Assembly (NCBI GenBank): GCA_944381345.1
Contig: CALWKU010000080.1
Coordinates: 2,891 to 66,890, forward strand
Length of the DNA stretch: 64,000 nt
DNA from: an uncultured Christensenellaceae bacterium
GTDB lineage: Bacteria; Bacillota; Clostridia; Christensenellales; UBA3700
Reading direction: 5' to 3'
Shown here: positions 2 through 61,802 of the stretch, piece after piece
How the letters are laid out: every line of letters begins with the position of its first letter
Position numbering within the stretch: the first letter of the stretch is position 1
Position numbers and translations under genes: made by a program
Notes under the pieces: model-generated
What the model was told of the DNA's origin: nothing
The model's database searches: none
The model's input: the letters and a program-made list of their open reading frames with translations, nothing else

Positions 2-631
2 TACAACGACGACGAGCGCGATTATTATACCAACAACGATCGCCGCGACCGCGACGCTCGCGGTTATCGTTCGGACGGCTATCGTGACCGCGGCTATGCC
101 GATCGTTCGGACTATTCCGACCGCGGATACGGACGCGAACCCGGCGGATATCGTCCCGACAGGGATCACCGCTCGGACAGACCCGACCGCGAGCGTTCGG
201 ACAGAGACTACCGTCCCCGCGACGACTATCGTCCCGCGCCGCAAAGGCAGGACGAGCCGCGCGATGTCTATCGTCCCGGCTATGACAACGAACTGTCTAT
301 GCAATATACGCAGACGGACGAAAAGAAGAAAAAGGGGTTGTTCGCCTTCGGCAAAAAAGATGACGCCAACGTTCACAACGTCATCATCACATATCCGCGC
401 TCGTATGAGGACGTTAGCGGCATAATCGATTCGCTGCGCTCGAGACAGGCGATCATCGTCGACTTCCGCCGCGTCGCGGGAAAAGACACGCAGCGCGTAC
501 TCGATTTTCTCAGCGGCGCGATATATGCGCTTGGCGGCTCGCAGCAGCGCATCAACGACAATATGTTTTTGTTCACCCCCGAGGGCGTGACCATACAGGG
601 GCCGTCGTCGCTCAAACGCAGATACGACTGA
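2..631 (+). CDS. sepF: Cell-division protein SepF. The reading frame is open to the window edge, so it is probably 5'-truncated. The conserved core begins near ATG 299.
   Basis: The C-terminal 90 aa (VIITYPRSYEDV..IIDSLRSRQAIIVDF..RVLDFLSGAIYALGG..MFLFTPEGV) match the SepF core. The same frame has no stop from nt 2 to 298 and encodes an R/D/Y-rich repeat region. There is no SD before ATG 299. Confidence 0.75.
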   Translation, partial: YNDDERDYYTNNDRRDRDARGYRSDGYRDRGYADRSDYSDRGYGREPGGYRPDRDHRSDRPDRERSDRDYRPRDDYRPAPQRQDEPRDVYRPGYDNELSMQYTQTDEKKKKGLFAFGKKDDANVHNVIITYPRSYEDVSGIIDSLRSRQAIIVDFRRVAGKDTQRVLDFLSGAIYALGGSQQRINDNMFLFTPEGVTIQGPSSLKRRYD

Positions 632-632
632 T

Positions 633-1304
633 ATGCTTGAATTTTTACGCAAATACCGCGTCTATATTTTCGAGATCTTGTTTGCCGCGGCGGCGCTCGC
701 GGTCGACCTTGTTTCCAAAGCGGCGGCGTTCGACATCCTCGAAGATACGCCGGGCGGCAGCATAGAGGTCGCTCCAGGCATATTTTCTATAACTCTTGCG
801 CGCAATTACGGCGCGTCGTTCGGCATTTTTTCAGGTAAGACTACGCTGCTGTCCGTGTTTACCGGTATAGGGATCGCGGCGGTGCTTGCGCTTTTGATCT
901 TCAGACCCAAGACTCCCAAGATATTCAGATATTCGCTGCTTTGCATCTTTGCGGGCGGACTTGGCAATTTGATCGACAGGCTCGCGCTGGGATATGTGCG
1001 TGACTTCATCGATTATACGTTTTTGGGTACGTTTTTCGGTATAGATTTTGCGATCGGAAACATCGCCGACATATTTGTCATGATAGCGCTCGGAATGCTT
1101 ATCGTCTATATGATCTTCGGGTACAGGGAGGGCGACTTTTCCAAAGGCGGAAGGCTTACGCCGCAGACTGTGACCGCTGCCGAGGAGGAGGGGAAAGCTC
1201 CGTTGCCATCGGCTGTAGAAGAGAGCGGCGCCGCATCGTCCGAGAGCGTTGACGAGTCAATATCGACAAAGACTTCCGAGAACGCGGACGGAGGAGAAAA
1301 GTGA
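633..1304 (+). CDS. lspA: Lipoprotein signal peptidase II with an acidic/Ser-rich C-terminal tail
   Basis: It has four TM segments and the LspA motifs NYGASFG and GGLGNLIDR..GYVRDFID. It directly follows sepF, and its stop overlaps the rluD start. Confidence 0.9.
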   Translation: MLEFLRKYRVYIFEILFAAAALAVDLVSKAAAFDILEDTPGGSIEVAPGIFSITLARNYGASFGIFSGKTTLLSVFTGIGIAAVLALLIFRPKTPKIFRYSLLCIFAGGLGNLIDRLALGYVRDFIDYTFLGTFFGIDFAIGNIADIFVMIALGMLIVYMIFGYREGDFSKGGRLTPQTVTAAEEEGKAPLPSAVEESGAASSESVDESISTKTSENADGGEK

Positions 1305-2254
1305 GCGGAGAACTCGTCTTTTCGTCTCGCTATTGCGGCAAATCGCAAAAGCGGCTTGACGAGTACGTCTCCGACATTACTTCATTTACCCGGTCGCATG
1401 CGCGCAATCTCATTCTCGACGGGCGCGTTACGGTCGACGACAAAGAGATCGTCAAGGCGGGATATATGATCAAACCTAACGTCCTCGTCACCGTGATATC
1501 GCCCCCTCCGAAAAAACTCGATCTTAATCCGTCCCGACGCGAAGTTCCGATAATCTATCAGGACGACGACATCGCTGTCGTAGACAAACCGCAGGGCATG
1601 GTCGTGCATCCCGCGCCGGGTTCGTACGGCGATACGCTCGTCAATTCGCTGCTTGCCCAACTCGATTCGCTGAGCGGCATAAACGGCATAGTCCGTCCGG
1701 GAATAGTACATAGGCTCGACAAGGATACGTCGGGACTTTTGGTCATTGCCAAAAACGACGAGGCTCATTTGTCGCTGCAAAAACAGATCGCCGCAAAGAC
1801 CGCGCGACGCACATATGTCGCGCTGCTTGACGGTGTGATCAAAGGCGACGGCGGGCGGATCGAAAACCACCTCGACCGCAGCGCAAAGGATCGAAAACTG
1901 TACTCGGTCTCGCGCAGCGGTTCGGGCAGGCTTGCGATCACCGATTACTGCGTACTCAAACGCTATCCGCAATATACGCTGGCGCGATTCGATCTTCAGA
2001 CGGGACGGACTCACCAAATAAGAGTGCACGCAAAATACATAGGGCATCCCGTTGTAGGCGATCCTGCGTACGGCGGCTCGAACGCGTTTGGGCTGGACGG
2101 GCAGCTGCTGCACGCCTGCAAGCTGACGATAACTCATCCGCGGACGGGAGAAGAAATGACTTTCCGCGCGCCGCTTCCGGAACATTTCAAAAAGGTATTG
2201 GAAGAATTGGATTCGAAATACGGCGGAGACGCCGTGGATACGGACAAGATATGA
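1301..2254 (+). CDS. rluD: RluA-family 23S rRNA pseudouridine synthase (RluD-like)
   Basis: An N-terminal S4-like region is followed by the catalytic motif HRLDKDTSGLLVIAKN and GRTHQIRVH. The GTG start overlaps the lspA stop, and a GGAGGAG SD lies upstream. Confidence 0.9.
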   Translation: MSGELVFSSRYCGKSQKRLDEYVSDITSFTRSHARNLILDGRVTVDDKEIVKAGYMIKPNVLVTVISPPPKKLDLNPSRREVPIIYQDDDIAVVDKPQGMVVHPAPGSYGDTLVNSLLAQLDSLSGINGIVRPGIVHRLDKDTSGLLVIAKNDEAHLSLQKQIAAKTARRTYVALLDGVIKGDGGRIENHLDRSAKDRKLYSVSRSGSGRLAITDYCVLKRYPQYTLARFDLQTGRTHQIRVHAKYIGHPVVGDPAYGGSNAFGLDGQLLHACKLTITHPRTGEEMTFRAPLPEHFKKVLEELDSKYGGDAVDTDKI

Positions 2255-2276
2255 CGCGCCCCGCAAGGAGCGCGTC
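2253..2276. terminator. Hairpin between the convergent rluD and rqcH genes
   Basis: GACGCGC-N10-GCGCGTC forms a 7-bp GC stem. The T-tract is weak. Confidence 0.4.
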
Positions 2277-2307
2277 TTGCTTGTCATAGAGGCGATGCGA
2301 ACGTCGG

Positions 2308-4044
2308 TCAGCCGTTCAATTCAAGGTTTTTCCGTGCGTCCGGTTTGACCGCTACTGAGTTGTAGACGGTGTAAAGCACCATTCCCGGCTTGCCGCAGGG
2401 GTGGCGCTTTACGTTCTTTCTGGCGGTGTAGTCGACGACCGCTTTGTCCGAACCTGCGGCTTCGGAATAGTACGCTGCGATTGCGGCAGCCTTGACGATC
2501 ACCTCGTCGGGGACGACTGCGCCTTCGGCGAATATTATCACGTGAGAGCCGTGCGAATCCTTTGCGTGCAGCCAAATGTCGCCGCCGTTTGCGGTCTTGA
2601 AAGTCAATTTGTCGTTTTGAAGATTGTTTTTGCCCGCAGCGACGGTGAAACCGTCTATTTCAAACAGCAGCGGCTTTGCCGGCTTTTGTTTGTGCGCGCC
2701 TTTGGCGGACTTGCCCGATTTCGGCGCGCCCGCATTCTGCAATTCGCCCTCTATTTCCGCGATGTCTTCGAGCGTCTCGCAAGCGTCGATCGACACTTCC
2801 ACGCCGCGCAGATATTCGAGCATATCGCGGCACTCTGCGATCTGGTCGTCGATGAGTTTTGCGGTGCGCTTTTGCTTGGCGTATTTTTTGAAGTATTGCG
2901 ACGCGTTTTGCTGAGGCGAAAGCGCGGGGTCGAGAGGGATCTCGATGGTCGGGCAGTCCTCGCGGTAGTAGTCCGTGACCTTGGCGGCCTTGTCGCCGCG
3001 AGCGATCGAGTGAAGCGAGGACATCAGCAATTCGCCGTATATGCGGTTGCGTTCCGCGCCCTCGGCGTCCTGTTTGCGCGCAAGGCATTTTTCCAATTTT
3101 TTGCGCGTTTTGGCGGTCAGCGAGCGGCAAGCCTTTACGAGATGGCGGACGTGCAGACGCTTGCGCTCTGCTGCGTCGCGCTCGCCGACGCAGAGGTCGA
3201 CGGCTTGGCTCAACGTATCCGTCTTGCGGAACTCCAGTCCCGAACCGTCGTAACGGAACGCGAAAAAGTCGTCGGGCACGTCGTTTTTGAGCGATACGCA
3301 CGGAGAATAGAATGGCATATCATAGACGTCGGCGAGGCTTGTCAGCATATCGGTCAAAGCGTCAGTTTGGGCATCGTCGAGCCTCTCGGCACGCGCGTCG
3401 AGCCCCGAGAGATAGACCGCCTCTTTCGCGGTAGGCTTTGCAAGTCCGCCTATCCCGGTCAGGATGTGGTCGGCAATGTCGCCTCCGGCAAACGACGCTA
3501 CGTGAGCGCGCACGGCGGCTTTGTCGGACAATTTGATCTTGCTTTGCGGCGGCAGTTCGTACTTTGCGCCGGGAAGCAGACAGCGCTTTGTCGCGGTGTC
3601 GAAAGTCGCCTGTTTGAGCGCGTCCTTGACCGCGCCCGTCGCGCCGTCGACAAGCATGATGTTGCTGTATCTGCCCATCATCTCGGCGATCAGCGAAAAT
3701 TTAACGGCGTCGCGCAGTTCGTTGCGCGCGGCGATATCAAAACAGAAGATGCGGTCCTCGCCGAGCATGCGGCAGCCGTCGATCACGGCGCCCGTCAGAA
3801 ATTTGCGCAGCAGCATACAAAACGACGGCGCGTTGACGGGATTTTGCTTTTTCCGGCAGGTGAAGTGTATTCGCGGGTTTTGTGCGTTTGCGGACGCGAC
3901 CAGCGTACGGTTGACGCCCGCGACGCGCACCGCAATCGTGATCTCGTCCTCCTCGGGCATATATATCTTGTCTATTTTCGCTCCGGAAAGCGAAGAGTTC
4001 AGCTCGCGGCAAAGGGCGTTCAAAGTGACGTAATCGTTGGGCAT
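2308..4044 (-). CDS. rqcH: NFACT-family ribosome quality-control factor (RqcH / FbpA-like)
   Basis: The N-terminal NFACT-N region (MPNDYVTLNALCRELN..KIDKIYMPEEDE) and the C-terminal NFACT-R/DUF814 motif (DIWLHAKDSHGSHVII) are both present. The length is 578 aa, and a GGAGGA SD precedes the start. Confidence 0.85.
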   Translation of the reverse strand: MPNDYVTLNALCRELNSSLSGAKIDKIYMPEEDEITIAVRVAGVNRTLVASANAQNPRIHFTCRKKQNPVNAPSFCMLLRKFLTGAVIDGCRMLGEDRIFCFDIAARNELRDAVKFSLIAEMMGRYSNIMLVDGATGAVKDALKQATFDTATKRCLLPGAKYELPPQSKIKLSDKAAVRAHVASFAGGDIADHILTGIGGLAKPTAKEAVYLSGLDARAERLDDAQTDALTDMLTSLADVYDMPFYSPCVSLKNDVPDDFFAFRYDGSGLEFRKTDTLSQAVDLCVGERDAAERKRLHVRHLVKACRSLTAKTRKKLEKCLARKQDAEGAERNRIYGELLMSSLHSIARGDKAAKVTDYYREDCPTIEIPLDPALSPQQNASQYFKKYAKQKRTAKLIDDQIAECRDMLEYLRGVEVSIDACETLEDIAEIEGELQNAGAPKSGKSAKGAHKQKPAKPLLFEIDGFTVAAGKNNLQNDKLTFKTANGGDIWLHAKDSHGSHVIIFAEGAVVPDEVIVKAAAIAAYYSEAAGSDKAVVDYTARKNVKRHPCGKPGMVLYTVYNSVAVKPDARKNLELNG

Positions 4045-4194
4045 TTATCCTCCGTGGCGCAAACGGTTTCGATCGAGCGCGTTTTCGCCGTCGCATATAT
4101 TATAAATTATAAATTTTTCGATTGCAATTATATTGCATAAATCGGTCGATTGTGTTAAACTACTATTTGCAAATAAATTTTGAGAGGTCGTTTT

Positions 4195-5604
4195 ATGAAC
4201 TACACCAAAGAACTTTTGGAGAAAAACAAGGTCAAATTTAGCGTCGAAGTAGACGCCGACGAGTGGCGCGCCGCGATCGACGAGGCATACAATAAGAACA
4301 AGGGGAAATTCCAGATCGAGGGTTTCCGCAAGGGCAAGGCGCCCCGCAGAGTCATCGAGAACGTCTACGGCGCCGGCGTATTTTACGAAGATGCGATGGA
4401 CATAATCTTGCCGAAAACATACGGCGAGATCCTCGACAAGGAGAGCGAACTCTTCCCGGTCGATTCGCCAGAGATCGACATCGACGCGATCAGCGACTCG
4501 ACTTTCAAATATACGGCGACCGTTCAGCTCAGGCCCGATGTCAAACTCGGCGCGTTCAAGGGGCTGAAATTCGTCCGCACCGTCAAGCCGGTCACCGACG
4601 AAGAGGTCGAAGAGAGCATCAAGTCCGCGCTTGATAACGCAGGCAGCTGGGAGCCGATCGGCGACAGAGCGGTCGAGGAAGGCGACAGGACGGTCATCGA
4701 TTACAGCGGCAGCGTCGACGGGGTCAAGTTTGACGGCGGCACCGCCGAAAAGCAAAATCTCGTCATCGGAAGCCACACCTTCATCCCCGGCTTCGAGGAG
4801 CAGGTCGTCGGCATGAAAGTGGGCGAGTCCAAGGACATCGACGTCACTTTCCCCGAGGATTATCACGAAAAGACGCTTGCGGGCAAGGCTGCCGTGTTTG
4901 CGGTTACGCTGCATGAGGCGACGCACAAGGTCGTACCTGCGCTCGACGACGAGAGCGTCAAGGACATCTCGGAGAGTTGCGACACGGTCGAGGAGTACCG
5001 CGCTTCCGTCCGCGCCGAGATAGAGAAGAAACACAACGACGAGGCCGATCAGGAGCTTGAAAACTCCATGGTCGACACCATTGCCGAAGCGTCCGAAGTT
5101 GACATCCCCGAGTGCATGGTCGAGGACGAGAGCAGGCACAAGATCGAAGAGTTTGCCTATCAGTTGCAATATCAGGGACTGAACATAGACGACTACTACA
5201 AGTTCACCGGTTCAACCGAGGAAGATCTGATGAAGAGATATCACGACTCCTCGCTCAAAGCCGTCAAGTACAGGCTCGTTATGCAGGAATTGATCAAACA
5301 GCTCGGTCCCGTCGACGTCTCGGACGAAGACGTACTCGCTTTCATCAAAGAGCAGATGGGCGCGATGGGCGACCGCTATGAAAAGATCGCCGACGTTCCG
5401 GAGGAATATGTCAATTATGCGAAGAGCATAGAGACTACAAAGAAAGTATTCGCGCTGTTGAAAGAGAACAACACCGTCGAAAACGCGACCGCCGAGGCGT
5501 CCGCCAAGGCAAATAAAGCGCCCGCCAAAAAGGCGGCGAAGAAAGCCGACGGCGAAGACGCGCCCAAGGCTAAAAAGACCGCTAAGAAAGCGGACAAGGA
5601 GTGA
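4195..5604 (+). CDS. tig: Trigger factor
   Basis: The ribosome-binding motif GFRKGKAPR, a central FKBP PPIase region and a Lys/Ala-rich tail are present. GAGAGG lies 7 nt upstream of ATG 4195, so the track's TTG at 4180 is less likely. Confidence 0.95.
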
Positions 5605-5605
5605 C

Positions 5606-6202
5606 ATGAAGGACATAAAGGATCTGCTCATCCCCACGGTCATTGACAAGACGGAGTCGGGCGAGAGGGCATATGACATCTATTCGAGACTGCTTGAGGA
5701 CAGGATCATATTTTTGACGGGTGAGATCAACGATCAATCCGCCGACAGCGTAGTAGCGCAGCTCATCTTCCTCGAGGCGAAGGACGCCGACAAGGATATC
5801 AGTCTGTATATCAACAGCCCCGGCGGCAGCGTCAGCGCGGGACTAGCGATCTACGACACTATGAATTATGTCAAGTGCGACGTCAATACGATATGCGTCG
5901 GCATGGCGGCGAGCATGGGCGCGTTTTTGCTCTCGTCGGGCGCAAAGGGCAAGAGATTCGCTCTGCCCAACAGCGAGATCATGATCCACCAACCGCTTGG
6001 CGGAGCGCAGGGACAGGCGTCGGATATCGTCATCGTCGCCAACCACATCCAGCGCACCAAGGAGAAGATGGCGCGCATACTCGCGGAAAATTGCGGGCAG
6101 CCCTTTGAAAAGGTCATGGCGGATACGGACAGGGACAACTATCTGTCCGCAGAAGAGGCGCTCGAATACGGCTTGATAGACAAAATATTCTACAAGAGAT
6201 GA
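5606..6202 (+). CDS. clpP: ATP-dependent Clp protease proteolytic subunit
   Basis: [37 protein letters not shown] carries the Ser-His-Asp ClpP signatures. Confidence 0.97.
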
Positions 6203-15878: not shown

Positions 15879-17441
15879 TCAGACTGTAGACAAACCCCAC
15901 CAAAACAAGCTTTTTGGTGGGGTTTGTGGTATAATATAAGTATGTTAAACAAGAGAAAGACAGACAATCGTAATCAAATACGAATGGTGTGCATTGAGGA
16001 TTTGGTTCCGCAAGATCACCTATTGCGTAAGATAGAGAACGCAATAGATTTCGGATTTGTTTACGATGAAGTAAAAGGGTTATACAGCAGCGACAACGGC
16101 AGACCGAGCATAGACCCGGTATGCTTGGTTAAGCTATGCGTTATTAACTATTTGTATGGATACAACAGCATGCGCCGCACAATTCGAGAATGCGAAGTAA
16201 ACATGGCATACAGATGGTTTATTGGGTATGGCATAGAAGAAAAGGTACCTCATTTCTCAACATTTGGGAAGAACTATATGAGGCGATTTGAGGGTACGGA
16301 TATATTCGAGAAGATATTCACTCGCGTATTAGACGAAGCAATACGGCACAAGTTTGTGGATGCAAAGACGATATTTGTAGACGGAACGCATGTAAAAGCG
16401 AACGCGAACATACACAAGAGCGCTAAGGTAATGGTGGAAAAAGAGGCTCGGAAGTATGATGAGCAATTAAAGAAAGAGATAAACGAAGACCGCGAGAAGC
16501 ACGGAAAGAAACCCTTTGACGATGATGACGAAACGCCGGGGACAAAGGAAATAACCGAATCGACGACGGATCCCGAGAGCGGACTTTTTCACAAAGGCGA
16601 ACACAAGAAATGCTTTGCGTATAACGTACAAGTGGCATGCGACAAACACGGTTGGATATTGGGCGGAACGGTACACAAAGGGAATAAACACGACAGTACC
16701 GTTTTCGACGAAATATACGAAAAAGTCAAAGAAACAACAGGGAGACCGGACAGTTTGGCTGCGGATGCGGGTTACAAAACGCCGGCAATAGCAAAGATGT
16801 TAATAGACGAGAATGTCAAACCGTATATGCCGTACAAGAGTCCTATGACAAAGAATGGATATCTGTACAAAAACGAATATGTATATGACGAATACTATGA
16901 CTGCTATATTTGCCCCAACTGCGAAGTATTGGAATACAGCACAACAAATAAAGAGGGGTACCGGGAATACAAGAGCAAACGAGAGGAATGCGAAAAGTGT
17001 CCGTATTTGAAACAATGCACAAAAAGCAAGAATAAGACCAAAGTCATAACCCGGCACATATGGGCAGAATACTTAGACAGAGTTGAGGATAACCGGCATA
17101 CGCAAGACGGAAAAGACATCTACGGAAAGCGAAAAGAGACAATAGAGCGAGTATTTGCGGACGCGAAAGAGAAACACGGGATGAGGTTTACAAGACACAA
17201 CGGCTTAGCAAAAGTTAAGACGCAGGTGTTGCTTACTTTGATGGTGATGAACTTGAAGAAATTAGCAAAGATGATTGGAGGAATACCCGAGAAAACACGA
17301 GACTTTTTAGCAAAAATGTTTGTCTTTACCTCAAATATTGGATTTGTAACTCAATTTTGAAAAGCAGAACACATTTTTTAAACCAAAAAGCAAAAGCGGC
17401 TTTGAACAATTTGTCCAAAACCGCTTTTGTCTACGGTCTGA
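15879..17441 (+). mobile_element. IS1182-family insertion sequence (about 1.56 kb)
   Basis: The terminal inverted repeats are TCAGACTGTAGACAAA (left) and TTTGTCTACGGTCTGA (right). It holds one DDE transposase ORF, is flanked by a 23-bp direct repeat, and has lower GC than its surroundings. Confidence 0.9.
15942..17360 (+). CDS. IS1182/IS5-type DDE transposase
   Basis: The N-terminal transposase domain (LVPQDHLLRKIE..GRPSIDPV..YGYNSMRR..EVNMAYRWF) is followed by a DDE region (FVDGTHVKANA..AADAGY..ERVFADAKE.HG). ATG 15942 lies 6 nt after TGgTATAAT. Confidence 0.9.
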   Translation: MLNKRKTDNRNQIRMVCIEDLVPQDHLLRKIENAIDFGFVYDEVKGLYSSDNGRPSIDPVCLVKLCVINYLYGYNSMRRTIRECEVNMAYRWFIGYGIEEKVPHFSTFGKNYMRRFEGTDIFEKIFTRVLDEAIRHKFVDAKTIFVDGTHVKANANIHKSAKVMVEKEARKYDEQLKKEINEDREKHGKKPFDDDDETPGTKEITESTTDPESGLFHKGEHKKCFAYNVQVACDKHGWILGGTVHKGNKHDSTVFDEIYEKVKETTGRPDSLAADAGYKTPAIAKMLIDENVKPYMPYKSPMTKNGYLYKNEYVYDEYYDCYICPNCEVLEYSTTNKEGYREYKSKREECEKCPYLKQCTKSKNKTKVITRHIWAEYLDRVEDNRHTQDGKDIYGKRKETIERVFADAKEKHGMRFTRHNGLAKVKTQVLLTLMVMNLKKLAKMIGGIPEKTRDFLAKMFVFTSNIGFVTQF

Positions 17442-20976: not shown

Positions 20977-21123
20977 CAATATCTGGTCGGCGGAGCATGG
21001 CGGAAAAACGCTGCAGCCGCAAGCCGGATGTCGGCCGATGCAGCGAAAATTTCGATGCGAGGTGTGCTGTCGGGCGCAAAGCGAGGTAAGCCGACTCGAA
21101 TTATTAACTTATGCGCCCAAAAT

Positions 21124-21153
21124 GCCGCCGCGCGTCTTAAATTGCGCGGCGGC
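21124..21153 (-). terminator. GC hairpin with a T-run on the minus strand. It may be the terminator for the GNAT locus.
   Basis: GCCGCCGCGC-N10-GCGCGGCGGC forms a perfect 10-bp stem. The minus strand continues ATTTTGGG. Confidence 0.45.
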
Positions 21154-21339
21154 GATCGGAGCGAGAGACGTTCGTAGGCGTTCAAAATGCGGCGGACATC
21201 TGCAATAATTGTCTCAGTAGCGCCATTATATCGGTCGGAGTATGACAAGGGAAACATATCGGCGTAAGCTGCTCATTATTTATAAGGGAATTATTTTGGC
21301 GGAATTGCCCGTCGGGAACGGGAGGCAAGGCGTTTAATC

Positions 21340-21855
21340 TTATAGATCTTTTCTCATGATGCGATCGGTCTGTCTGTAGTTGCCCCAAAAGAATACGTGT
21401 GATCAGATCGTATAAAAGCCGTTGCGCTTGTAGAAGCGCAATGCGCGCCCGTTGTTCTCCCAAACTCCGAGCCATATATGATCTTTTCAGTGCAGTCTTG
21501 CGAGATCCGACGCGTAATCCAACATATATTTACCCAAGCCTTTGCAGTAAAATTCTTTTGTTATATACAGGCGTTCGATTTCTGCAGACCGCGCGTCGTT
21601 AAAATCCGTTTGCGCGGGAGGAAAGATGATTTTGAGGCATCCGCACAAAATATTTTTGAAAAACATAAGATAAAATTCCGAGTTTGCATTATTCAATTCC
21701 GACAGAAGTTTTCTCTTGTTGAATGCGGAATCAAGATACAATGCCATGTTATCCTTCGAGTTGAACGGCGCAAAAGTTTGAGTATATGTGATTATAGATA
21801 AGTTGCGAAGCGCATCGATGTCGGAAACCGTGCATTTTTTCAAATAACAGTCCAT
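21340..21855 (-). pseudogene. GNAT-family N-acetyltransferase interrupted by two in-frame TGA codons
   Basis: It is a single 172-codon frame. The 122-aa ORF ends ..EIERLYITKEFYCKGLGKYMLDYASDLARLH, then TGA (21487-21489). It continues KDHIWLGVWENNGRALRFYKRNGFYTI, then TGA (21403-21405), then SHVFFWGNYRQTDRIMRKDL and TAA. The locus is AT-rich. Confidence 0.8.
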
Positions 21856-22767
21856 AAATTTGTACTAATGACAGTATATACGATTCGAGCGTAATAGTCG
21901 AACGTGAAAGTGTATAAACGCCATTGAGTTGACGCAATCTGCGCATATGAATGTATATCTTCAAAAATTATTTGGCTGTATTATCAAAATATTGCGGTAT
22001 TACAATCATCTTGTGCAACATATTACAAATATAATAATACACAAGTGTAGAAGAATCCAAAAAACTTGTTGTGAAACAAATTTTCAAAACATTCGATATC
22101 GCATGTAAAAACAAAAAATATTGAAATTATAGACGTATTGAAGTTGAAAACCCTGAAAACATACTTGTGAAACAAAATCTCGTGATTGTTATTGAGGATG
22201 CGTAATAAAACTTGTTCCAACAAACTGTAATATTATTATAAATTAAACAATCAATTATTATATTAATTTTATCAATATAATAATTGGGACTATCGGACAA
22301 AACGCAAATTAAACATCTGATTGTCTAGTATTAATCATATGTAGAATATAACCCAAAAACTTCCGGCAGACATTGGGGAGCAGGCGTTGTCGATAGTTCA
22401 TGCTTGCGGCAGAATAGAGCGATATACCGCAACAAATGTAGATCGCCGAACATTTACTGCGGTTTTCAGACATATACCCGGATATCGTAAGGATAGGTAA
22501 AACAATTAAAACTTTGTTATTCCCGAGCGATTGTACGAATAACGATCGCGTAAGTTCAGCTTTTTCCGGATCCGTTATTTGTCGGATAGACCGTTTGTAA
22601 TAGTCGATCGATCGCGTCAAAGCAAGTTGCGGGACTCAATATGTTCAGCGTGTCGTTAAGCGGTTTTCCTATATCAAAACAAAGCAAAAATCGCGCATTT
22701 CCGCAATTTTGCGTCACTGCGTCTCGGCTATACTGTTATTTGCCCTTCGGGGAGATTGGAGGACGAA

Positions 22768-23076
22768 ATGCAGGTCAAATTTGCCGAATATGCCGATGCT
22801 ACCGTCGTCAGATTGGACGGAGAACTTGACGAACATACCGCCGCGCAAGTGCGCCAGGCGGTCGATATGGCTATCGATATGTGCAGACAAAAGACTTTTG
22901 TCTTTGATTTTTCTTCGCTGTCTTTTATGGACAGTACGGGTATCGGTATACTGCTCGGAAGATACAAAAAACTGAAAGCAAAGGGTATAGTTCCCAAGAT
23001 TTATGCTCCGAATCGTCAGGTGGACAAGATCTTGCAGATGGCGGGGATATACGCGATCATCAAAAAGACAAGTTGA
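22768..23076 (+). CDS. spoIIAA: Anti-sigma-F factor antagonist SpoIIAA
   Basis: It has a STAS domain with the phospho-serine context FMDSTGIG. GGAGG lies 5 nt before ATG 22768, so the track's TTG at 22756 is unlikely. Confidence 0.93.
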   Translation: MQVKFAEYADATVVRLDGELDEHTAAQVRQAVDMAIDMCRQKTFVFDFSSLSFMDSTGIGILLGRYKKLKAKGIVPKIYAPNRQVDKILQMAGIYAIIKKTS

Positions 23077-48561: not shown

Positions 48562-48812
48562 CATCACCGTTGAGGCATAGCCGCCGTTAAGGAGGCTATT
48601 ATATAGTAGGCGGCTCGCATTTTCAATGCGCCGCTTTGCAAAAAGAATAGATAAAGAGTTACCGCTAAATTAAGTCGGGACAGATCAAAACGGCCGTTAA
48701 AAGCGTCCTGCAGCGAAGATCGCCCATAGTATCAGCAAGTTGCGCAGGGAAAACCGTTCGAGAAAACGGGCAAATCAAGAGCTTCGCTGTTACGTTTGAC
48801 CTGAACGCCGCA

Positions 48813-49127
48813 TTATGCCTCGTTATCATCGACGGCTTGAATCAAAAAACTGACGGGGCGAAAGCCGTCGTTGCAAGATAGCATCGCCGAATGCGAATCC
48901 TTCATCCAATCACCGTAAAACCTGCCTCCGCCGCGCAAAAGTTCATCGACAAAAGGGAAGAGCGTCTCCCACGCGTTTTTACAAAAACCGCGCGGACGGT
49001 TGCCGTCGCTCCAAAAGATTTGACCGACGCGCATATCGCAGGCGTTAGAAATAGGGTTTTCGTATTTTGCGATCAAATCGTCATAGCGCGCGACGCGCAT
49101 GACCGTGATCTTGCACTTCCTCGTCAC
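48813..49127 (-). CDS. Small 4-Cys protein resembling the TIGR04076 family, co-transcribed with lexA
   Basis: It is 104 aa with the pattern KITV..., CD..VGQ.F, P.GFC..AW, and SC.DGFRPV.F. Its ATG overlaps the lexA stop by 4 nt. Confidence 0.6.
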   Translation of the reverse strand: MTRKCKITVMRVARYDDLIAKYENPISNACDMRVGQIFWSDGNRPRGFCKNAWETLFPFVDELLRGGGRFYGDWMKDSHSAMLSCNDGFRPVSFLIQAVDDNEA

Positions 49128-49759
49128 GCCTTGTGCGCGAACGAATTGCGCATCAATCCGACGGCAATGCCGAGGATGCGGAAGTCCGTCCCTTCGGGTA
49201 CGACGATGTCATCCATTTGAGAATTTTCAGGATGAAGGACTATGTCGCCGTCCTTGCGGAAAAAGCGTTTGAGCGTCACCTCGCCGCCGTCTATCTGTGC
49301 GGCGACGATGTCGCCCTCATTTGCCGTCGGCGTAGATCTGATCAGTACTACGTCGCCGTTCATAATGCCTATCTCGCGCATACTTTCACCCTTTACGGTC
49401 AAGCAAAAATTGTCGCCGACGAGATGAAAGAAATCGGCGGGAAAGTGCATCTTGACGTCGTTCTCGACTGCGGCAAGCAACGGTTGACCTGCGGCGATGT
49501 TGCCGAGCATGGGGACGGTCGCAAAGTCTTTGAATTCTTCGTCGTCGACGAGTTCGATCGTCCTGTTTTTGGCGGTCTCGCGTTTGATCAGCCCCGCGTT
49601 GACGAGTTTTTCGAGATAGTATTGCACGGAAGCGGTTGACTTGAAGCCGCCTTCGCGGCAGATATCGCGCACGCTGGGCGAATAGTTGTGTTCGGACACA
49701 AACTTGCGGATGCAAGCCATCGTCTTGTCCAAATTTTCCTGCATTTTTGTCGACGCCAT
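49124..49759 (-). CDS. lexA: SOS repressor LexA
   Basis: It has a winged-helix N-domain, the Ala-Gly cleavage site (NIAAGQP), and the S24 catalytic Ser (GESM) and Lys (TLKRF). Confidence 0.96.
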   Translation of the reverse strand: MASTKMQENLDKTMACIRKFVSEHNYSPSVRDICREGGFKSTASVQYYLEKLVNAGLIKRETAKNRTIELVDDEEFKDFATVPMLGNIAAGQPLLAAVENDVKMHFPADFFHLVGDNFCLTVKGESMREIGIMNGDVVLIRSTPTANEGDIVAAQIDGGEVTLKRFFRKDGDIVLHPENSQMDDIVVPEGTDFRILGIAVGLMRNSFAHKA

Positions 49760-49785: not shown

Positions 49786-49814
49786 ATTTTAGCACATATG
49801 TTCACATTTTGCAA
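49786..49814 (-). promoter_or_regulatory. lexA promoter with an embedded SOS (Cheo-type) box
   Basis: On the minus strand: TTGCAA (49809-49814), a 17-nt spacer, then TAAAAT (49786-49791). The spacer contains GAACATATGTGC (49792-49803), which is one mismatch from GAAC-N4-GTTC. Confidence 0.75.
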
Positions 49815-49830
49815 CGGCTTTACCGAAATA

Positions 49831-50014
49831 TTTGCAAAAATGTATTGACAGACTAATATGATTGCAAAATTACGTGCGCGTTTTGGTCAAACAAAACTAT
49901 AAAATGCTCAAAATTTTGTAAAGATGTCTTGACAGGATATTTTCAAAATTCCGAACAACAACCAAACGCGCATTTGATAAAAAGTACAAAGATTTTTGCA
50001 AAGACGTCTTGACT
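49831..50014. repeat. Three degenerate ~82-bp tandem repeats with the core TTTGyAAArAyGTmTTGAC
   Basis: The cores are at 49831-49850, 49914-49934 and 49993-50014. They lie in the AT-rich spacer between the recombinase 3' end and the lexA promoter. Confidence 0.7.
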
Positions 50015-50068
50015 ACGTTGCTTTGCGGTAATACCGTCTAAACCTCCGCTCGAACGATAGGGGCGAGA

Positions 50069-51121
50069 TCAATTTCTCGGTTCACGCAAGATGACTTTAC
50101 GTGCGGCGTCGCGCTTGATATCGTCGCTGATAGCGGCGTAATGGCGTTTTGTCGTGTTGATGTCCTTATGTCCGAGTACTTCGGCCACGACATAGATGTC
50201 GCCCGTTTCGCGGTACAGTTCGGTGCCGTATGTGCTGCGCAGCTTGTGAGGCGTGATCTTTTTGAGCGGGGTTACGATCTGTGCGTATTTTTTTACCAAA
50301 AGTTCGACGCTGCGCACCGACATACGCTTTTTTTGCAAAGATACGAACAGCGCCGGCACTTCATCGAGCGCTTCGTCCTTTGCGCGTTCGTCAAGCCATG
50401 CGAGCAGAGCGTCCGCGACTTCGTCCGAAAAGTACAAGATCGTCTGAGAACCGCCTTTTCGCGTGATCTTGAATCCGTTTACGTTAAAATCGAGGTCGTC
50501 GACGTCAAGACCGACAAGCTCGCTGATACGAATCCCCGTACCGAGAAAGAGCGTCATGATCGCAAGATCGCGCAAACGGGTCTTTTCGTGAAAAGCTGCT
50601 TGTCGCTCGCCCAAGCCTTCGCCGCTGTCTACGCTGTCAAGCAATCGCGTAACTTCATCTACTTCAAGCCTTATGATCGGTTTCTCGTGTAATTTCGGCG
50701 TCAAGACTTTGGATGCCGGATCGGAGTCTATCGAATCCTTGTTGTAAAAATACTTGAAAAAAGATTTGATAGTGGACAATTTGCGTGCCTTAGTTTTGAC
50801 GCTGTTTGAATATTTTACGCCGTCGAACTCGTAATAGTTGAGAAATTCGAGAAAAGATTCTATCTGCGATGTAGAGACTTCGTCAAGCTGTTTAATGCCG
50901 AAATTCGACGCGTCAAAGCTTTGAAATTCGCGTGTTTCCGTAAAAAGATAATAAAAAAATATTCTGAGATCGTATGCGTATTCCAATCTCGTAAGAGGCG
51001 TCGTGCGGTTTTCGATCCCGATGAAAAATTCATCGCAAAACTTAGGCAGATCGCGCCTGATCTCACGCAATTTGAGCGTATTGTCAATGTTTCGTTGCTC
51101 AAAATAATCGGTCTTTTTCAT
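50069..51121 (-). CDS. Tyrosine recombinase (XerC/D-like, 350 aa with extended N-terminal SAM-like domain)
   Basis: The catalytic signature is present: RDLAIMTLFLGTGIRISE (Arg), HKLRST (His-x-x-Arg) and LGHKDINTTKRHY (His...Tyr). Confidence 0.9.
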   Translation of the reverse strand: MKKTDYFEQRNIDNTLKLREIRRDLPKFCDEFFIGIENRTTPLTRLEYAYDLRIFFYYLFTETREFQSFDASNFGIKQLDEVSTSQIESFLEFLNYYEFDGVKYSNSVKTKARKLSTIKSFFKYFYNKDSIDSDPASKVLTPKLHEKPIIRLEVDEVTRLLDSVDSGEGLGERQAAFHEKTRLRDLAIMTLFLGTGIRISELVGLDVDDLDFNVNGFKITRKGGSQTILYFSDEVADALLAWLDERAKDEALDEVPALFVSLQKKRMSVRSVELLVKKYAQIVTPLKKITPHKLRSTYGTELYRETGDIYVVAEVLGHKDINTTKRHYAAISDDIKRDAARKVILREPRN

Positions 51122-51127
51122 ATCTTA

Positions 51128-51156
51128 ATCATAACACGCAACGCATAATTTGACAA
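51128..51156 (-). promoter_or_regulatory. Sigma-A-type promoter abutting the recombinase start codon
   Basis: On the minus strand: TTGTCA (51151-51156), a 17-nt spacer, then TATGAT (51128-51133), then TAAGAT and ATG (51121). There is no SD. Confidence 0.5.
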
Positions 51157-51212
51157 GCAAATTCGTATTTTGCGAAAAGATTGACAAAACTAAAACTTAC
51201 CACACAATAAGC

Positions 51213-51692
51213 AAACAAACATTCGCAAATTTCGGCGTAATTACGAGACGACGCATAGGGAATGAACAAATATTCGTTGAATTACAAACACAAAATCTCG
51301 CTTTAGGTGTAAATTAAACGGTTGCGGAACATATATTCGCACGACAACTAACACAAGATCCCGCAATCAGACCGACGCATTGTACAAATATTCTGCGAAT
51401 AACAAACACGAAATCTCGATCCGTGCAAAAGCAGGACGACGTTGAACAAACATTCGCTCGATAAAAAACACAAGCGGAGTGCAGACGAATTACGAAAGAG
51501 AAACGAGTCGAAATATACCGCCATGAGAATCGCGGTCGCGTACAATAGAATTACGCAACGCGTAACAAATGATCGTCATCGTTGAAATTTGTCGACGACA
51601 GACATGATCGGATATTCATTGATAAATAACCGGCGCAAAATATTGCACGCAAACGTAAAGACGGCACGCAAAACAATGCGAACATATATTTG
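51213..51692 (+). repeat. Array of SOS-box-like 13-mers (GAACAnAnATTCG) within degenerate 53-63-bp repeats
   Basis: The boxes are at 51213-25 (AAACAAACATTCG), 51264-76 (GAACAAATATTCG), 51327-39 (GAACATATATTCG), 51382-94 (GTACAAATATTCT), 51444-56 (GAACAAACATTCG) and 51680-92 (GAACATATATTTG). The units pair into two ~118-bp higher-order repeats. Confidence 0.75.
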
Positions 51693-52538
51693 TGCGGGGA
51701 AAGGCGCGCCATATACAGACAGCTAGCAAAACGAAGCGCATGACAAAGCGAATAAAACTCGTATCGGATATCCCTGAACACAGATCGCAGACGTATATTA
51801 ATAAGCAGCGACATTGCAAAAATAATACGTAAGTCCGAAACGACGTAAAACCGCCAAAAAATAAGCGAATAAAATCAGAACCATTTAGGCTGAGAATCGT
51901 CAGATTATTTTGAAAATCACTCTTATTTGAAATAATATTGCGCTAATTTTTCGCAAAGGTATTGTTTTGCGAATAGATTAAAAGACTAAAATTTATGTTT
52001 CCCGACTGCGATCAGATCCGTTTTGATGCGTTGAAGCAATGCAGTTCGGCTCAATTATATCCTAATCAAAATACGGAGCTCGCTGCAACGCAATATATAA
52101 GCGCACCCGGGGGTAGATTGCTCTGTCGTTAATTTGTGAACACTTGTTTTGCTGCGCTCCCCCGCTGTTTTTCTCACTAGACATACTATTTGAATGTGAA
52201 TTTTCATTATTTTAACAATTTAACCGTATAGAGTCGTATATTAAGCAATTTGGGTTGAACAAATACTGCACCGTAAGCGTTGCACATAACTAAGCCCATG
52301 TAGACAATACGACGTTGAGGCGGTCTATTCCTAATATTCGGAGCTGATCGGCTACCGGCGGCATGATAAATTCATTGTATGCCGATACGATTTCCGATCG
52401 GCAGTATGTAGTTCTTATCATTTGAACGTTATTACACGTCTGTCCTCTAATTTTTGTAAATTATAATAAAAACTTGTCTAAATGAGAAATATTTTGTCCT
52501 GCATTTCAAATTATTGTTACAAATATCTTCGCTATTAT

Positions 52539-52567
52539 TTGACTGTTCTATCAAAGTGTTGTATCAT
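52539..52567 (+). promoter_or_regulatory. Sigma-A promoter of the PadR-like gene
   Basis: TTGACT, a 17-nt spacer, then TATCAT. An AAGGAG SD is at 52573-78, before ATG 52585. Confidence 0.6.
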
Positions 52568-52584
52568 AGATACAAGGAGAAGAT

Positions 52585-53925
52585 ATGGACGCATCCAACG
52601 TAAACATAGATCTCATACGTTCCCATGTGGACACCATTATCCTCAGATCGCTCTGCGACGAGGACAAGTATGGCTATGAGATCCTCAATGAGATTAAGGA
52701 CAAGAGCAAAGGACTGTATATGCTCAAACAGCCCACTCTTTACAGCTGTCTCAAACGTTTGGAAAAGCTCGGTTACATTCGTTCGTACAAGGGCGACGTG
52801 TCCAACGGAGCGCAACGTGTTTACTACTCTTTGCAACCCGAAGGGCGGACGTTTCTCGAAAGCGACCAGGTCCAATGGGAATTCAGCCGTACGATCATCG
52901 ACAAGTTGCTTTCGGATAAAGAGTTTGATCCCGCAAGCATCCCTCCGTTTGATCCTACCGCCTATCGACCGATGACCAAGCGTCAGCGCAATCCCCACTC
53001 CTATGCCGAATATCTCGCTTCGCTTGCCGAACCCGACGATTCCGCTCCCGCCGACGACGCGCAACCCGAATCTAACACCGAAGAGGGCGCTCCGATCGTT
53101 TACGATCGTCCCTCTCCCGCCGCCGTTGCGCCCGAGCAACGTCAAGGTAAAGACGACGGTGCGTCGAGTTACGAACGTATAGCCGAGATCTTCAAGACGC
53201 CCAAAAAAGAAGTCGAAGAAGATCCCCGCCCCGAGCCGTCTCCCGCTCCGATATTCGATATGCGCGACGAGGAGCCGGGCGTCAACTATATCACGAGTTT
53301 TGACAGCATTTACAGTTCGCCTCAAAACGATGTGCGCGAGTATGCCGGGTCCGCCGACCGCAGCTTCGACGGCGGCGCCGATCAGTACGGCTTTGTTTCT
53401 CTCAACGAACTGCGCGCGCGTTATGCTGCGGACGGATACACGATAAGACAATATGTAAAGAAAAATACGAGCGAGTTTTACATCAACAATTACTATTACG
53501 TCAACAGGCTGCTGCGCGACTGCTCTTTCTTTGCGTACGCGCTGTATGCCATTGAGGTCTTGATCGCCTATTTTGCGACATTCCGCATGACAGAGCCATC
53601 CGCTTCGATCGGTTATCTGTTTTTATTTCTCGGGATCGGGCTTTTGTTCCCCGTCTTTGCCGTGGTCAATTGCTTTGTAGACCCGGTCAAGCGTGTAAAA
53701 GCCAATTTCAGCTTGCGTTCCTCGCTGATCAATTCGCTGATATTCATGTTGAACGCATTGATATTGATCGTTTGTTTGGGATTCTTCGTGTTCGGGGCGA
53801 AGATCGATGCGCCCTCAACGTCCGTCAAACCGATCATCATCCCGGCGTTGTTCCTTCTCGACATCCCCGCCGCACTGTTGATCTACAATTTACTGTACAA
53901 GACGCGACGCTACCATGTGAGCTGA
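52585..53925 (+). CDS. PadR-family transcriptional regulator fused to a disordered linker and a 4-TM C-terminal domain
   Basis: The N-terminal winged helix (IILRSLCDEDKYGYEILNEI...KQPTLYSCLKRLEKLGYI..Y) is followed by ~170 aa rich in Pro, Glu and Asp. Four hydrophobic helices occupy the last ~140 aa. Confidence 0.8.
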   Translation: MDASNVNIDLIRSHVDTIILRSLCDEDKYGYEILNEIKDKSKGLYMLKQPTLYSCLKRLEKLGYIRSYKGDVSNGAQRVYYSLQPEGRTFLESDQVQWEFSRTIIDKLLSDKEFDPASIPPFDPTAYRPMTKRQRNPHSYAEYLASLAEPDDSAPADDAQPESNTEEGAPIVYDRPSPAAVAPEQRQGKDDGASSYERIAEIFKTPKKEVEEDPRPEPSPAPIFDMRDEEPGVNYITSFDSIYSSPQNDVREYAGSADRSFDGGADQYGFVSLNELRARYAADGYTIRQYVKKNTSEFYINNYYYVNRLLRDCSFFAYALYAIEVLIAYFATFRMTEPSASIGYLFLFLGIGLLFPVFAVVNCFVDPVKRVKANFSLRSSLINSLIFMLNALILIVCLGFFVFGAKIDAPSTSVKPIIIPALFLLDIPAALLIYNLLYKTRRYHVS

Positions 53926-61340: not shown

Positions 61341-61802
61341 TCAGACGAGATAAGATCTCAAAAGTTGAACGGTGGCGTCGACGTTCTCGCCGTCGGCTAC
61401 GACCGTGAAGATGGTGTCGTCGCCGGCAAGCGTGCCTATGACCTGCGGAAGATTGAGGTGGTCTATGAACGCACACGCGCTGTTGGCGCCGCCCGTGACC
61501 GTCTTGACGACGATCAGATTTGACGCGCTGCGGATGGACAGCACGCACTCTTTGAAGATGTTGCCGTACTTCGCGGCGATCTTGTGCGCTCCGCCGTCGG
61601 CTTTGACATATTTATACTTTCGCTCCGTCCCCGAGACTTTGACCAGTCCCAGCTCCTTGACGTCGCGCGAGACCGTCGCCTGCGTCGCGTCCGATCCCTG
61701 TTTTCGCAGCAGTTCCACAAGCTCGCCCTGCGTGCCGACCTCTTGTCTTTCAATGATGTCGAGGATCAATTGCTGTCTTTTGGATCTGACCATATCACTC
61801 AC
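61341..61802 (-). CDS. argR: Arginine repressor ArgR/AhrC
   Basis: The winged helix (RQQLILDII....V.TQGELVELL...G...TQATVSRD..EL) and the C-terminal GTLAGDDTIF motif are present. Confidence 0.94.
   Translation of the reverse strand: MSDMVRSKRQQLILDIIERQEVGTQGELVELLRKQGSDATQATVSRDVKELGLVKVSGTERKYKYVKADGGAHKIAAKYGNIFKECVLSIRSASNLIVVKTVTGGANSACAFIDHLNLPQVIGTLAGDDTIFTVVADGENVDATVQLLRSYLV

Follow-up and report, generated by a model that had tools for sequence, protein, structure and literature searches.

A strand-locked array of composite sites beside a dif-like site, a Xer-family recombinase gene and lexA in an uncultured Christensenellaceae bacterium

The 64-kb stretch of DNA analyzed here (contig CALWKU010000080.1 of an uncultured Christensenellaceae bacterium; hereafter, the window) carries an array of short boxes in the intergenic gap upstream of a gene (xer) encoding a Xer-family tyrosine recombinase, which is followed by lexA. 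A first-pass annotation had described these boxes as SOS-box-like motifs. Four of them were found to belong to a two-block composite unit that has a fixed geometry, always lies on the xer/lexA strand, is conserved in the closest genomes and is located near a separate dif-like site at the replication terminus. The PadR-family gene, the dif-like site, xer and lexA, in this order, constitute a newly recognized terminus module, and its dif site had previously gone unnoticed. The boxes are this genome's copies of a conserved, strand-locked cis-element of the module, which would act on the DNA itself and serve neither as classical promoter operators nor as the crossover site of the recombinase. The reading that we tentatively prefer is that the array is an oriented platform of protein-binding sites to which LexA might be weakly bound through one good half-site.

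The composite unit and its conservation

Six copies of a 13-mer had been reported in the gap. All six are real but looser than was reported: three are exact, two have one mismatch and one has two. A pattern search of the window found GAACANANATTCG without mismatches at 51264, 51327 and 51444 and with one mismatch at 51213 (AAAC...) and 51680 (...ATTTG); a single further one-mismatch match is present in the 64 kb, and about 0.03 exact matches are expected by chance for the 11 fixed bases of this pattern. The box at 51382 reads GTACAAATATTCT and differs from GAACANANATTCG at two positions. A weaker seventh copy that had been proposed near 52258 contains three mismatches, which corresponds to the chance level. 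The box spacings (51, 63, 55 and 62 bp) had been given correctly, and an independent repeat search recovered a 38-nt family, D1, with four copies at 51263, 51326, 51381 and 51443 (66–84% identity; spacings 63, 55 and 62 bp). The proposed higher-order repeat of 118 bp is marginal, showing 65% identity versus a mean of 56% and a maximum of 64% in shuffled sequences. Tandem Repeats Finder (minimum score 30) did not report the array because its spacers are too divergent; the conserved cores, which alternate with unrelated spacers of differing length, do not form the head-to-tail copies of a tandem satellite. The gap itself (51122–52584; 1463 bp, GC 0.39) contains no open reading frame (ORF) longer than 87 aa, in agreement with the first-pass annotation, and the deviation shared by the boxes was rightly taken there as the mark of a propagated unit. 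That description was nevertheless incomplete, since the second block GTGTTTGT, the minus-strand reading of the units, and the dif-like palindrome with its terminus context in the same gap had been missed.

On the minus strand, the unit consists of block 1, YGTGTnnGT, and, exactly 17 nt on, of CGAA[T/A]-N4-GTTCG, which is a 14-bp near-palindrome; the total length is 32–34 bp. The 17-nt offset between the blocks is invariant over all units. A position weight matrix (PWM) of the unit was scanned on both strands of the window and over the 13-kb related loci introduced below, and the scans for the dif-like site covered the same DNA. In the window, four full units score at least 28 bits each, and the rest of the 64 kb gives at most 16 bits on either strand. 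The units and the other boxes are as follows.

51442..51475, minus strand: composite unit A, GCTTGTGTTTTTTATCGAGCGAATGTTTGTTCAA, with the box at 51444; PWM 28.8 bits; family D1
51380..51413, minus strand: composite unit B, TTTCGTGTTTGTTATTCGCAGAATATTTGTACAA, with the box at 51382; right half GTAC, not GTTC; PWM 34.8 bits; family D1
51325..51358, minus strand: composite unit C, TCTTGTGTTAGTTGTCGTGCGAATATATGTTCCG, with the box at 51327; PWM 29.7 bits; family D1
51262..51295, minus strand: composite unit D, TTTTGTGTTTGTAATTCAACGAATATTTGTTCAT, with the box at 51264; PWM 40.2 bits; reference copy of D1
51213..51229, minus strand: promoter-proximal box, AAATTTGCGAATGTTTGTTT, without block 1; one mismatch; PWM below 12 bits
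51680..51692, minus strand: isolated degenerate box, plus-strand sequence GAACATATATTTG, without block 1; one mismatch; no PWM match

Counted from the xer ATG, the boxes within the units begin 154–334 bp upstream, and the units themselves lie at −174 to −354. The promoter-proximal copy could also be aligned in the two closest relatives, L001 and L002, and its TTTGCGAAT part resembles the right arm of the dif-like site. The box at 51680..51692 probably lies outside the array.

For comparison, 80 related genomic loci around recombinase homologues were used (L001–L080, about 0.9 Mb; 81 loci including the window). The homologues number in the thousands; the best 120 are at least 60% identical to the recombinase of the window, and the named ones come from metagenome-assembled genomes of Clostridia or Christensenellales. 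Recombinase identity to that of the window is 96% in L001, 91% in L002 and 73–76% in L004–L013. The unit is present in 14/14 of the closest genomes (the window and L001–L013), in one to five copies, invariably on the strand of xer and lexA. For both L001 and L002, repeat searches independently recovered it in three copies each, with spacings of 96–120 bp. A pattern derived from these two loci and the window identified 11 further units in L004–L013, on the same strand and in one intergenic gap, with one stray match in about 0.9 Mb. At a PWM score of at least 15 bits, 38 matches were found in the window and L001–L013, none in L014–L080 and one in shuffled loci. The flanking intergenic DNA is unalignable even among the four closest genomes (mean column identity 51%), and yet the unit is kept, indicating that it is under purifying selection. 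The comparison of the lexA–xer region among relatives that the first-pass annotation had suggested thus revealed an array conserved in the 14 closest genomes with fixed geometry and strand.

A pattern of the composite unit with 24 fixed bases gave no matches in a metagenome scan, which therefore carries no information on wider occurrence. Upstream of xer, GAAW-N4-GTTC boxes without block 1 have the orientation of the units in 12 of 78 loci and the opposite one in 2 of 78; hence, the box may be an ancient element linked to xer, which one clade has elaborated and amplified.

Another explanation takes the array for a local satellite, neutral or selfish and without a function of its own, such as the remains of elements integrating at dif. 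Copy number (1–5), the distance between adjacent full units (51–122 bp) and position do differ among species, elements do integrate at the dif-like site, and many contigs break just upstream of xer. On the other hand, the two blocks, their 17-nt offset and the strand are kept at 73–76% recombinase identity amid unalignable DNA, an identical three-unit array occurs in four independent samples of one species, and no unit was found in the remainder of the 64 kb or of the 0.9 Mb of related loci. These features make the satellite explanation quite improbable.

Small toxin and small-RNA loci controlled by the SOS response exist in other bacteria, and promoters of SOS-induced small RNAs had been offered as one explanation of the array. 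It is very unlikely that the units individually serve as promoters or operators of SOS-induced genes for small RNAs or peptides. Promoter-like matches in the region do exceed those in shuffled sequences (15 vs 7.7), but no −35/−10 pair is consistently placed relative to the units on either strand, and downstream of the units, neither sequence nor ORF is conserved from unit to unit or from species to species. According to the Rfam analysis of the window and 11 related loci (gathering and E-value thresholds), the only match was a chance-level nqrA hit (E 0.69), and RNAalifold found no consensus fold in 33 aligned units (−0.25 and 0 kcal/mol on the two strands).

Several other recognition sequences were compared with the unit and rejected. 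Promoters of sigma-70, sigma-H, sigma-E and sigma-K were dismissed by eye, as neither strand offers consistent spacing or hexamers. The unit fits none of the consensus sequences of DnaA, Spo0A, Rex, CodY, SinR, parS, NBS and matS sites. Likeness to the Bacillus subtilis Ter consensus was seen only in unit B (GTACAAATATTC) and required a 1-nt gap; it was dismissed because unit B is a deviant copy.

The dif-like site, the recombinase and the terminus

The array lies between the xer promoter and a separate palindrome, which are listed here with the recombinase gene.

50069..51121, minus strand: gene of the Xer-family tyrosine recombinase, 350 aa (Pfam Phage_integrase, 3.8e-33, and SAM_1)
51128..51156, minus strand: xer promoter, TTGTCA, 17-nt spacer, TG-extended TATGAT (promoter scan 10/12)
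51168..51182, minus strand: near-perfect copy of the left arm of the dif-like site, AATCTTTTCGCAAAA, 11 bp upstream of the −35 of xer; candidate half-site for autoregulation by Xer
51945..51979, no strand assigned: dif-like core recombination site, 35-bp palindrome, xer strand AATCTATTCGCAAAA-CAATAC-CTTTGCGAAAAATT; inverted arms with a 6–7-bp centre

A k-mer survey of the regions upstream of the recombinase genes yielded a palindrome of about 32 bp, AACTATTCGCAAAA-CACAAC-TTTTGCGAATAGTT. In the window, the palindrome at 51945–51979 is unique, with zero copies expected by chance. It occurs once per locus in 66 of the 81 loci with conserved orientation; most of the other loci are truncated upstream. 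The arms of the palindrome covary between lineages (CTATGCGTAAAA...TTTTACGCATAG, CTATGCGCAAAA...TTTTGCGCATAG, CTCTTCGCAAAA...TTTTGCGAAGAG), which is the signature expected of one protein binding both arms. The site thus combines inverted arms around a short centre, a single copy, a switch of GC skew and an adjoining Xer gene, and it is the predicted core site of the adjacent recombinase, i.e., a candidate dif. The units of the array lack the inverted arms of 11–13 bp with a 6–8-bp centre and share only CGAAwA or TTCGCA with the arms. The proposal that the array comprises core sites of the recombinase was therefore wrong; the core corresponds to the separate unique palindrome, supplemented by the half-site in the xer promoter.

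In the window, the cumulative GC skew has its maximum at about 50–51 kb; long ORFs left of 48.6 kb are encoded by the plus strand, and those right of 53.9 kb by the minus strand. Of 52 related loci, 39 show a skew that turns from positive (left) to negative (right), and none shows the reverse. The switch of GC skew and gene orientation at the locus indicates that it is the replication terminus. The strand skew of oligomers around dif (a signal of the KOPS type) is dominated by coding bias within the 64 kb.

The translated recombinase contains the catalytic motifs GIRISE, HKLRST and LGH...RHY. Its best NCBIfam match is XerS (NF003462), with 168.5 bits against a cutoff of 267; matches with XerA, XerC and XerD are also below their cutoffs. 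In the PDB, the best matches are XerD and XerA, and similarity with XerH is weak (E 3e-6). The recombinase and its site would appear to work like the single-recombinase dif modules XerS/difSL and XerH/difH, of which they are not members by the tests made. The −10 element of xer ends 6 nt before the ATG and no Shine-Dalgarno sequence is present, so that the recombinase mRNA may be leaderless; the same layout is seen in many relatives (51119–51133 in the window). As for the half-site in the promoter, the 13-mer TCTWTTCGCAAAA is found in the window only at 51168–51182 and in dif. The 15-bp arm block is invariant in the window and L001–L003, and arm half-sites are present in or beside the xer promoters of other lineages, at −50 to −91. 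We infer that the recombinase may regulate its own gene through this half-site.

The similarity with the arms raises the question of whether the units are accessory or regulatory sites of the adjacent recombinase, arm-like sequences that control xer expression or dif synapse. The box shares CGAAwA with the right arm (TTTGCGAAwA), many units run on as GTTCGCA (cf. TTCGCA of the arm), and the promoter-proximal copy, TTTGCGAATG, agrees with the arm in about 10 of 12 bases and faces the perfect arm copy at 51168–51182. In addition, single-recombinase Xer systems are genetically linked to their sites (PMC5357621). Yet the inner part of the arm, TTTT/AAAA, which 66 loci keep without change, is missing from the units, and the likeness extends over only 6–7 bp in AT-rich DNA. 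The array of L004–L013 is too far away, being located 2.6–3.2 kb from dif, with two genes between and beyond the xer transcription unit, and according to Pfam the recombinase has no separate arm-binding domain. Such a role is accordingly unlikely.

The dif-like site is also used by mobile elements. In locus L030, a 5.6-kb insert (170–5830) separates a half site from a full site of the palindrome. Its cargo includes a Rep protein similar to G2P of filamentous phages (E 3e-5, just below the Pfam cutoff), an HTH_3 repressor and a DUF2726 protein, and no match with a Pfam integrase was found among the seven ORFs of the insert that were scanned. Split sites are also present in L029, L032 and L036 upstream of the recombinase gene. 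The site in L030 therefore serves for integration by an element without an integrase, as with integrative mobile elements exploiting Xer (IMEX), and the insert looks like an inovirus-type element integrating via the host Xer system.

Seven IMG/VR contigs (L081–L087, GC 0.29–0.44) carry a full palindrome, e.g., AACTATTCGCAAAAGGATAGTTTTGCGAATAGTG, and no Xer gene within the fetched flanks; these palindromes may imitate the host dif as attP sites, or the contigs may be host DNA that was placed in viral bins. At least 10 assemblies break 40–520 bp upstream of the recombinase gene (L009, L018, L025, L037, L042, L043, L050, L056, L058 and L074), which suggests strain-variable insertions at dif or repeats that fragment assemblies. 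Between dif and the PadR-family gene, a GC-rich inverted repeat, CGGGGG...CCCCCG, was noted at 52108–52170.

Candidate proteins for the array

The proposed reading of the near-palindrome by LexA was assessed using the lexA gene of the window and its promoter.

49124..49759, minus strand: lexA (Pfam LexA_DNA_bind and Peptidase_S24)
49792..49803, minus strand: predicted autoregulatory operator of lexA, GAACATATGTGC, in the promoter spacer

The lexA gene follows xer in 67 of the 81 loci. Its box at 49792–49803, pointed out in the first-pass annotation, is real and lies inside the spacer of a TTGCAA-17-TAAAAT promoter; TGTGAACATATGTGCTAA is nearly invariant 41–47 nt upstream of lexA in the window and L001–L013, with variation at three leading bases and one N4 base. 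The LexA motif of the clade could be derived from lexA promoters only.

The consensus of the LexA (Cheo/DinR) box in Firmicutes is CGAACRNRYGTTCG, i.e., CGAAC-N4-GTTCG. The resemblance of the array boxes to it is genuine: CGAATATACGTTCG, found in L007–L013, agrees with CGAACRNRYGTTCG in 13 of 14 bases, among them the flanking C and G and the RNRY spacer, and the units of the window match it at 11–12 of 14. The array box is as close to GAAC-N4-GTTC (7/8) as the clade's own operator GAACATATGTGC, and the array is always located within about 2.4 kb of the lexA gene. LexA of Clostridioides difficile binds sites with one defective half, namely, AAAC-N4-GTTC and GAACATAAAAAT (PMC4234289). Perfect GAAC-N4-GTTC sequences are represented by nine matches in about 0.9 Mb of loci, fewer than expected, and several of them (L005, L007, L011, L012 and L016) have AT-rich, LexA-like spacers.

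A number of observations weigh against LexA. The left half of the box is GAAT or GAAA in 33/33 units and never GAAC, whereas in the lexA operators, which were found at 47 of 67 loci, the inner AC...GT is preserved throughout and only outer positions vary. The units, in none of which both inner cores are intact, are therefore defective at the position that LexA appears to need most. The C. difficile vanR site, GAAC-N4-ATTT, shows unstable LexA binding (PMC4234289). According to the promoter scan, no unit of the window overlaps a −35 or −10 element, the sole promoter being that at 51128–51156. The location of the array also varies: it is upstream of xer in the window, L001 and L002, L003 has one unit, between xer and lexA, and in the ten sister species L004–L013 one to four units are found downstream of lexA, in a gap between convergent genes. 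The role of the array is thus not limited to the xer promoter, and the array is not simply the operator set of the recombinase. Finally, LexA accounts for neither block 1 nor the strict polarity of the units.

Consequently, control of the recombinase by the SOS response, as suggested earlier, is unlikely to be the main role of the array, with no unit on the promoter and the array placed after lexA in ten sister species and between xer and lexA in one. The proposal of a LexA platform held in part: the box is near the consensus and the array near lexA, but the C of GAAC that the operators keep is missing from all units. LexA would be the best candidate reader of the near-palindrome, held weakly via the perfect half-site (CGAAC on the bottom strand), and whatever reads block 1 would perhaps help it to bind. 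Beside dif, xer and lexA, such a LexA-loaded platform could be cleared upon LexA cleavage. We infer that proteins, LexA among them, may bind it, and that an SOS-dependent consequence might follow.

The half-site TGAAT is also reminiscent of ArgR, the classical accessory factor of Xer recombination at plasmid cer sites. The ARG-box consensus is TGAATwwwwATTCA, and ARG boxes normally occur in close pairs. The left half and spacer of the boxes, TGAAT-wwww, are ARG-box-like, and an argR gene is present at 61341–61802. However, 31 of 33 units have GTTCG in place of ATTCA as their right half, and the bases that flank the box are C and G, not T and A; the match is 11/14 with the ARG box versus 13/14 with the LexA consensus. 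Moreover, the boxes are 50–120 bp apart, not in close pairs, and their distance from dif is too large and variable. Binding by ArgR is therefore highly improbable.

The main rival of the LexA platform is that the units are sites of a terminus-specific DNA-binding protein forming a polar barrier, either a Ter-like fork pause or a roadblock or unloading platform for SMC (structural maintenance of chromosomes) complexes. We regard this as possible, although not probable. It agrees with the position of the locus at a GC-skew sign change (39 of 52 related loci, none opposite) and a convergence of gene orientation and with the character of the units, which are bipartite, about 32 bp long, strictly oriented, independent of promoters, and mobile between three intergenic positions, yet always on one side of dif, 0.5–3 kb away. 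The Ter sites of B. subtilis are likewise bipartite and polar (PMC10331603). Precedents for dif-proximal SMC blocks are known in archaea, where AT-rich intergenic DNA near dif bound by a winged-helix protein stalls SMC, and in B. subtilis, where arrays of dif-like XDS sites block SMC (PMC11840125). In the window, dif is also flanked by a gene for a winged-helix protein.

52585..53925, plus strand: gene of the PadR-family winged-helix protein, 446 aa (Pfam PadR, 2e-15), with a divergent C-terminal half

This gene is the divergent neighbour of dif and xer in 56 loci. The N-terminal domain of its product is about 80% identical in L005–L013, whose recombinase is 75% identical, and the C-terminal half is seemingly membrane-spanning, as judged from its sequence. 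The DNA-binding domain shows a faint full-length match with Pfam RTP (E 0.034), which at 15.1 bits is far below the cutoff of 26.7 and is expected of any PadR protein; identification as an RTP homologue was therefore rejected. The palindrome in the PadR promoter (52539–52584), TGTATCATAGATACA, is unlike the unit, and no candidate protein emerged. Units in the opposite orientation are absent from the 64 kb and from all of the 80 13-kb loci, which argues against a fork trap. Furthermore, the units are limited to 14 close genomes, whereas the terminus, dif and xer are common to the wider loci (dif in 66 of 81). A version of this explanation, in which oriented composite sites load some protein beside dif so as to pause forks or to stop or unload SMC in one direction, with LexA or the PadR-like neighbour perhaps recruited, seems doubtful.

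Neighbouring features and relation to known systems

Other observations concern the surroundings of lexA. A second LexA-like box, AAACTTATGTTC, is located in L015, L018, L030 and L033 about 165–190 nt upstream of the lexA start and about 100–120 nt upstream of the main operator, and L003 has CGAATAAATGTTCG at −191 from lexA; the lexA promoters of the group may be multi-box. An ORF of 104 aa at 48813–49127 (minus strand) without a Pfam match overlaps the stop codon of lexA, with which it is apparently co-transcribed; in the close relatives L089–L092, a gene of 98 aa is predicted at the corresponding place. Past the lexA operon, a near-consensus promoter TTGAAA-17-TATAAT (11/12) at 48598–48626 (minus strand) faces the 3' end of a convergent methionine-gamma-lyase-like gene and may drive an antisense or small transcript. 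The xer–lexA spacer contains two 23-nt direct repeats, TTTTGYAAAGAYGTCTTGACWNN, at 49914–49936 and 49994–50016, 80 bp apart, each with a plus-strand TTGAC motif resembling a −35 element. Far from the array (15924–17360 and 21000–23000), a DDE transposase of an insertion sequence is encoded in a low-GC stretch (GC 0.38–0.47) among sporulation genes (two sigma factors and spoVAD) and nrdR.

To our knowledge, fork traps and terminus organizers have been described in few model lineages (Tus, RTP, MatP and XerD-XDS), and most bacteria are thought to lack them. The compact module, comprising xer, a dif-like site, an arm copy in the promoter, lexA directly downstream and a PadR neighbour, is seen across a gut-associated order of Clostridia (Christensenellales and relatives), and phage-like elements without integrases insert at its dif-like site. 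The polar array of composite sites with a core mimicking the LexA box is limited to one family-level clade. Binding of the array by LexA would couple chromosome-dimer resolution and the terminus with the SOS response in a novel manner. Were it bound by another protein, the array would be a candidate for a new terminus barrier; should it act as a terminus organizer, it would represent the third, independently evolved barrier after Tus-Ter and RTP-Ter, coupled to a new single-recombinase Xer/dif module. Either way, a testable dif prediction is provided for a large uncultured group, and the frequent assembly breaks at this place would be accounted for.

Among known systems, the closest to the recombinase and its site are XerS/difSL of streptococci and lactococci and XerH/difH of Helicobacter and Campylobacter. 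In common with these, one Xer recombinase of about 350–360 aa is encoded beside its own site, and the site has slightly asymmetric inverted arms ending in AAAA/TTTT, a short centre and a GC-skew switch. The system described here differs in that the recombinase is below the XerS cutoff and only weakly similar to XerH, the arm sequence is CTATTCGCAAAA, the site lies 60–1300 bp from the gene and is not adjacent to it, and an extra arm copy is located in the promoter. Neither XerS/difSL nor XerH/difH is known to include a comparable repeat array.

With the LexA operators of Firmicutes, such as those of the multi-box lexA promoter of B. subtilis and the tandem sites of CDR20291_2056 in C. difficile, the units share a 14-bp near-palindrome with flanking C and G and an AT-rich RNRY spacer, one perfect GTTCG half, and the presence of several copies near lexA. 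They differ in the other half (GAAT/GAAA), the second block at a fixed distance, the strict orientation, the location off the promoter, and the arrangement of one to five copies at 50–120-bp spacing. The accessory sequences of plasmid Xer sites (cer/psi; ArgR, PepA and ArcA) are similar in providing extra protein sites on one side of the core, and the left half of the box is ARG-box-like; however, these sequences lie directly beside the core, within about 200 bp, whereas the distance here is 0.5–3 kb with genes between, and the box fits LexA better than ArgR.

The RTP-Ter system of B. subtilis likewise has bipartite polar sites of about 30 bp clustered at the terminus by dif, with its winged-helix dimer encoded nearby (PMC10331603). 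In contrast, the locus analyzed here has no RTP homologue at threshold and no opposed second cluster, and the sequences are unrelated. As for XerD-XDS, XerD binds half-sites that resemble dif (the XDS sites), whereas the units do not make convincing arms of a Xer site. Both in this B. subtilis system and with TrmBL2 at dif of Thermococcus, protein-bound sites in a large AT-rich intergenic region at dif shape the chromosome, and arrays of sites strengthen the effect (PMC11840125).

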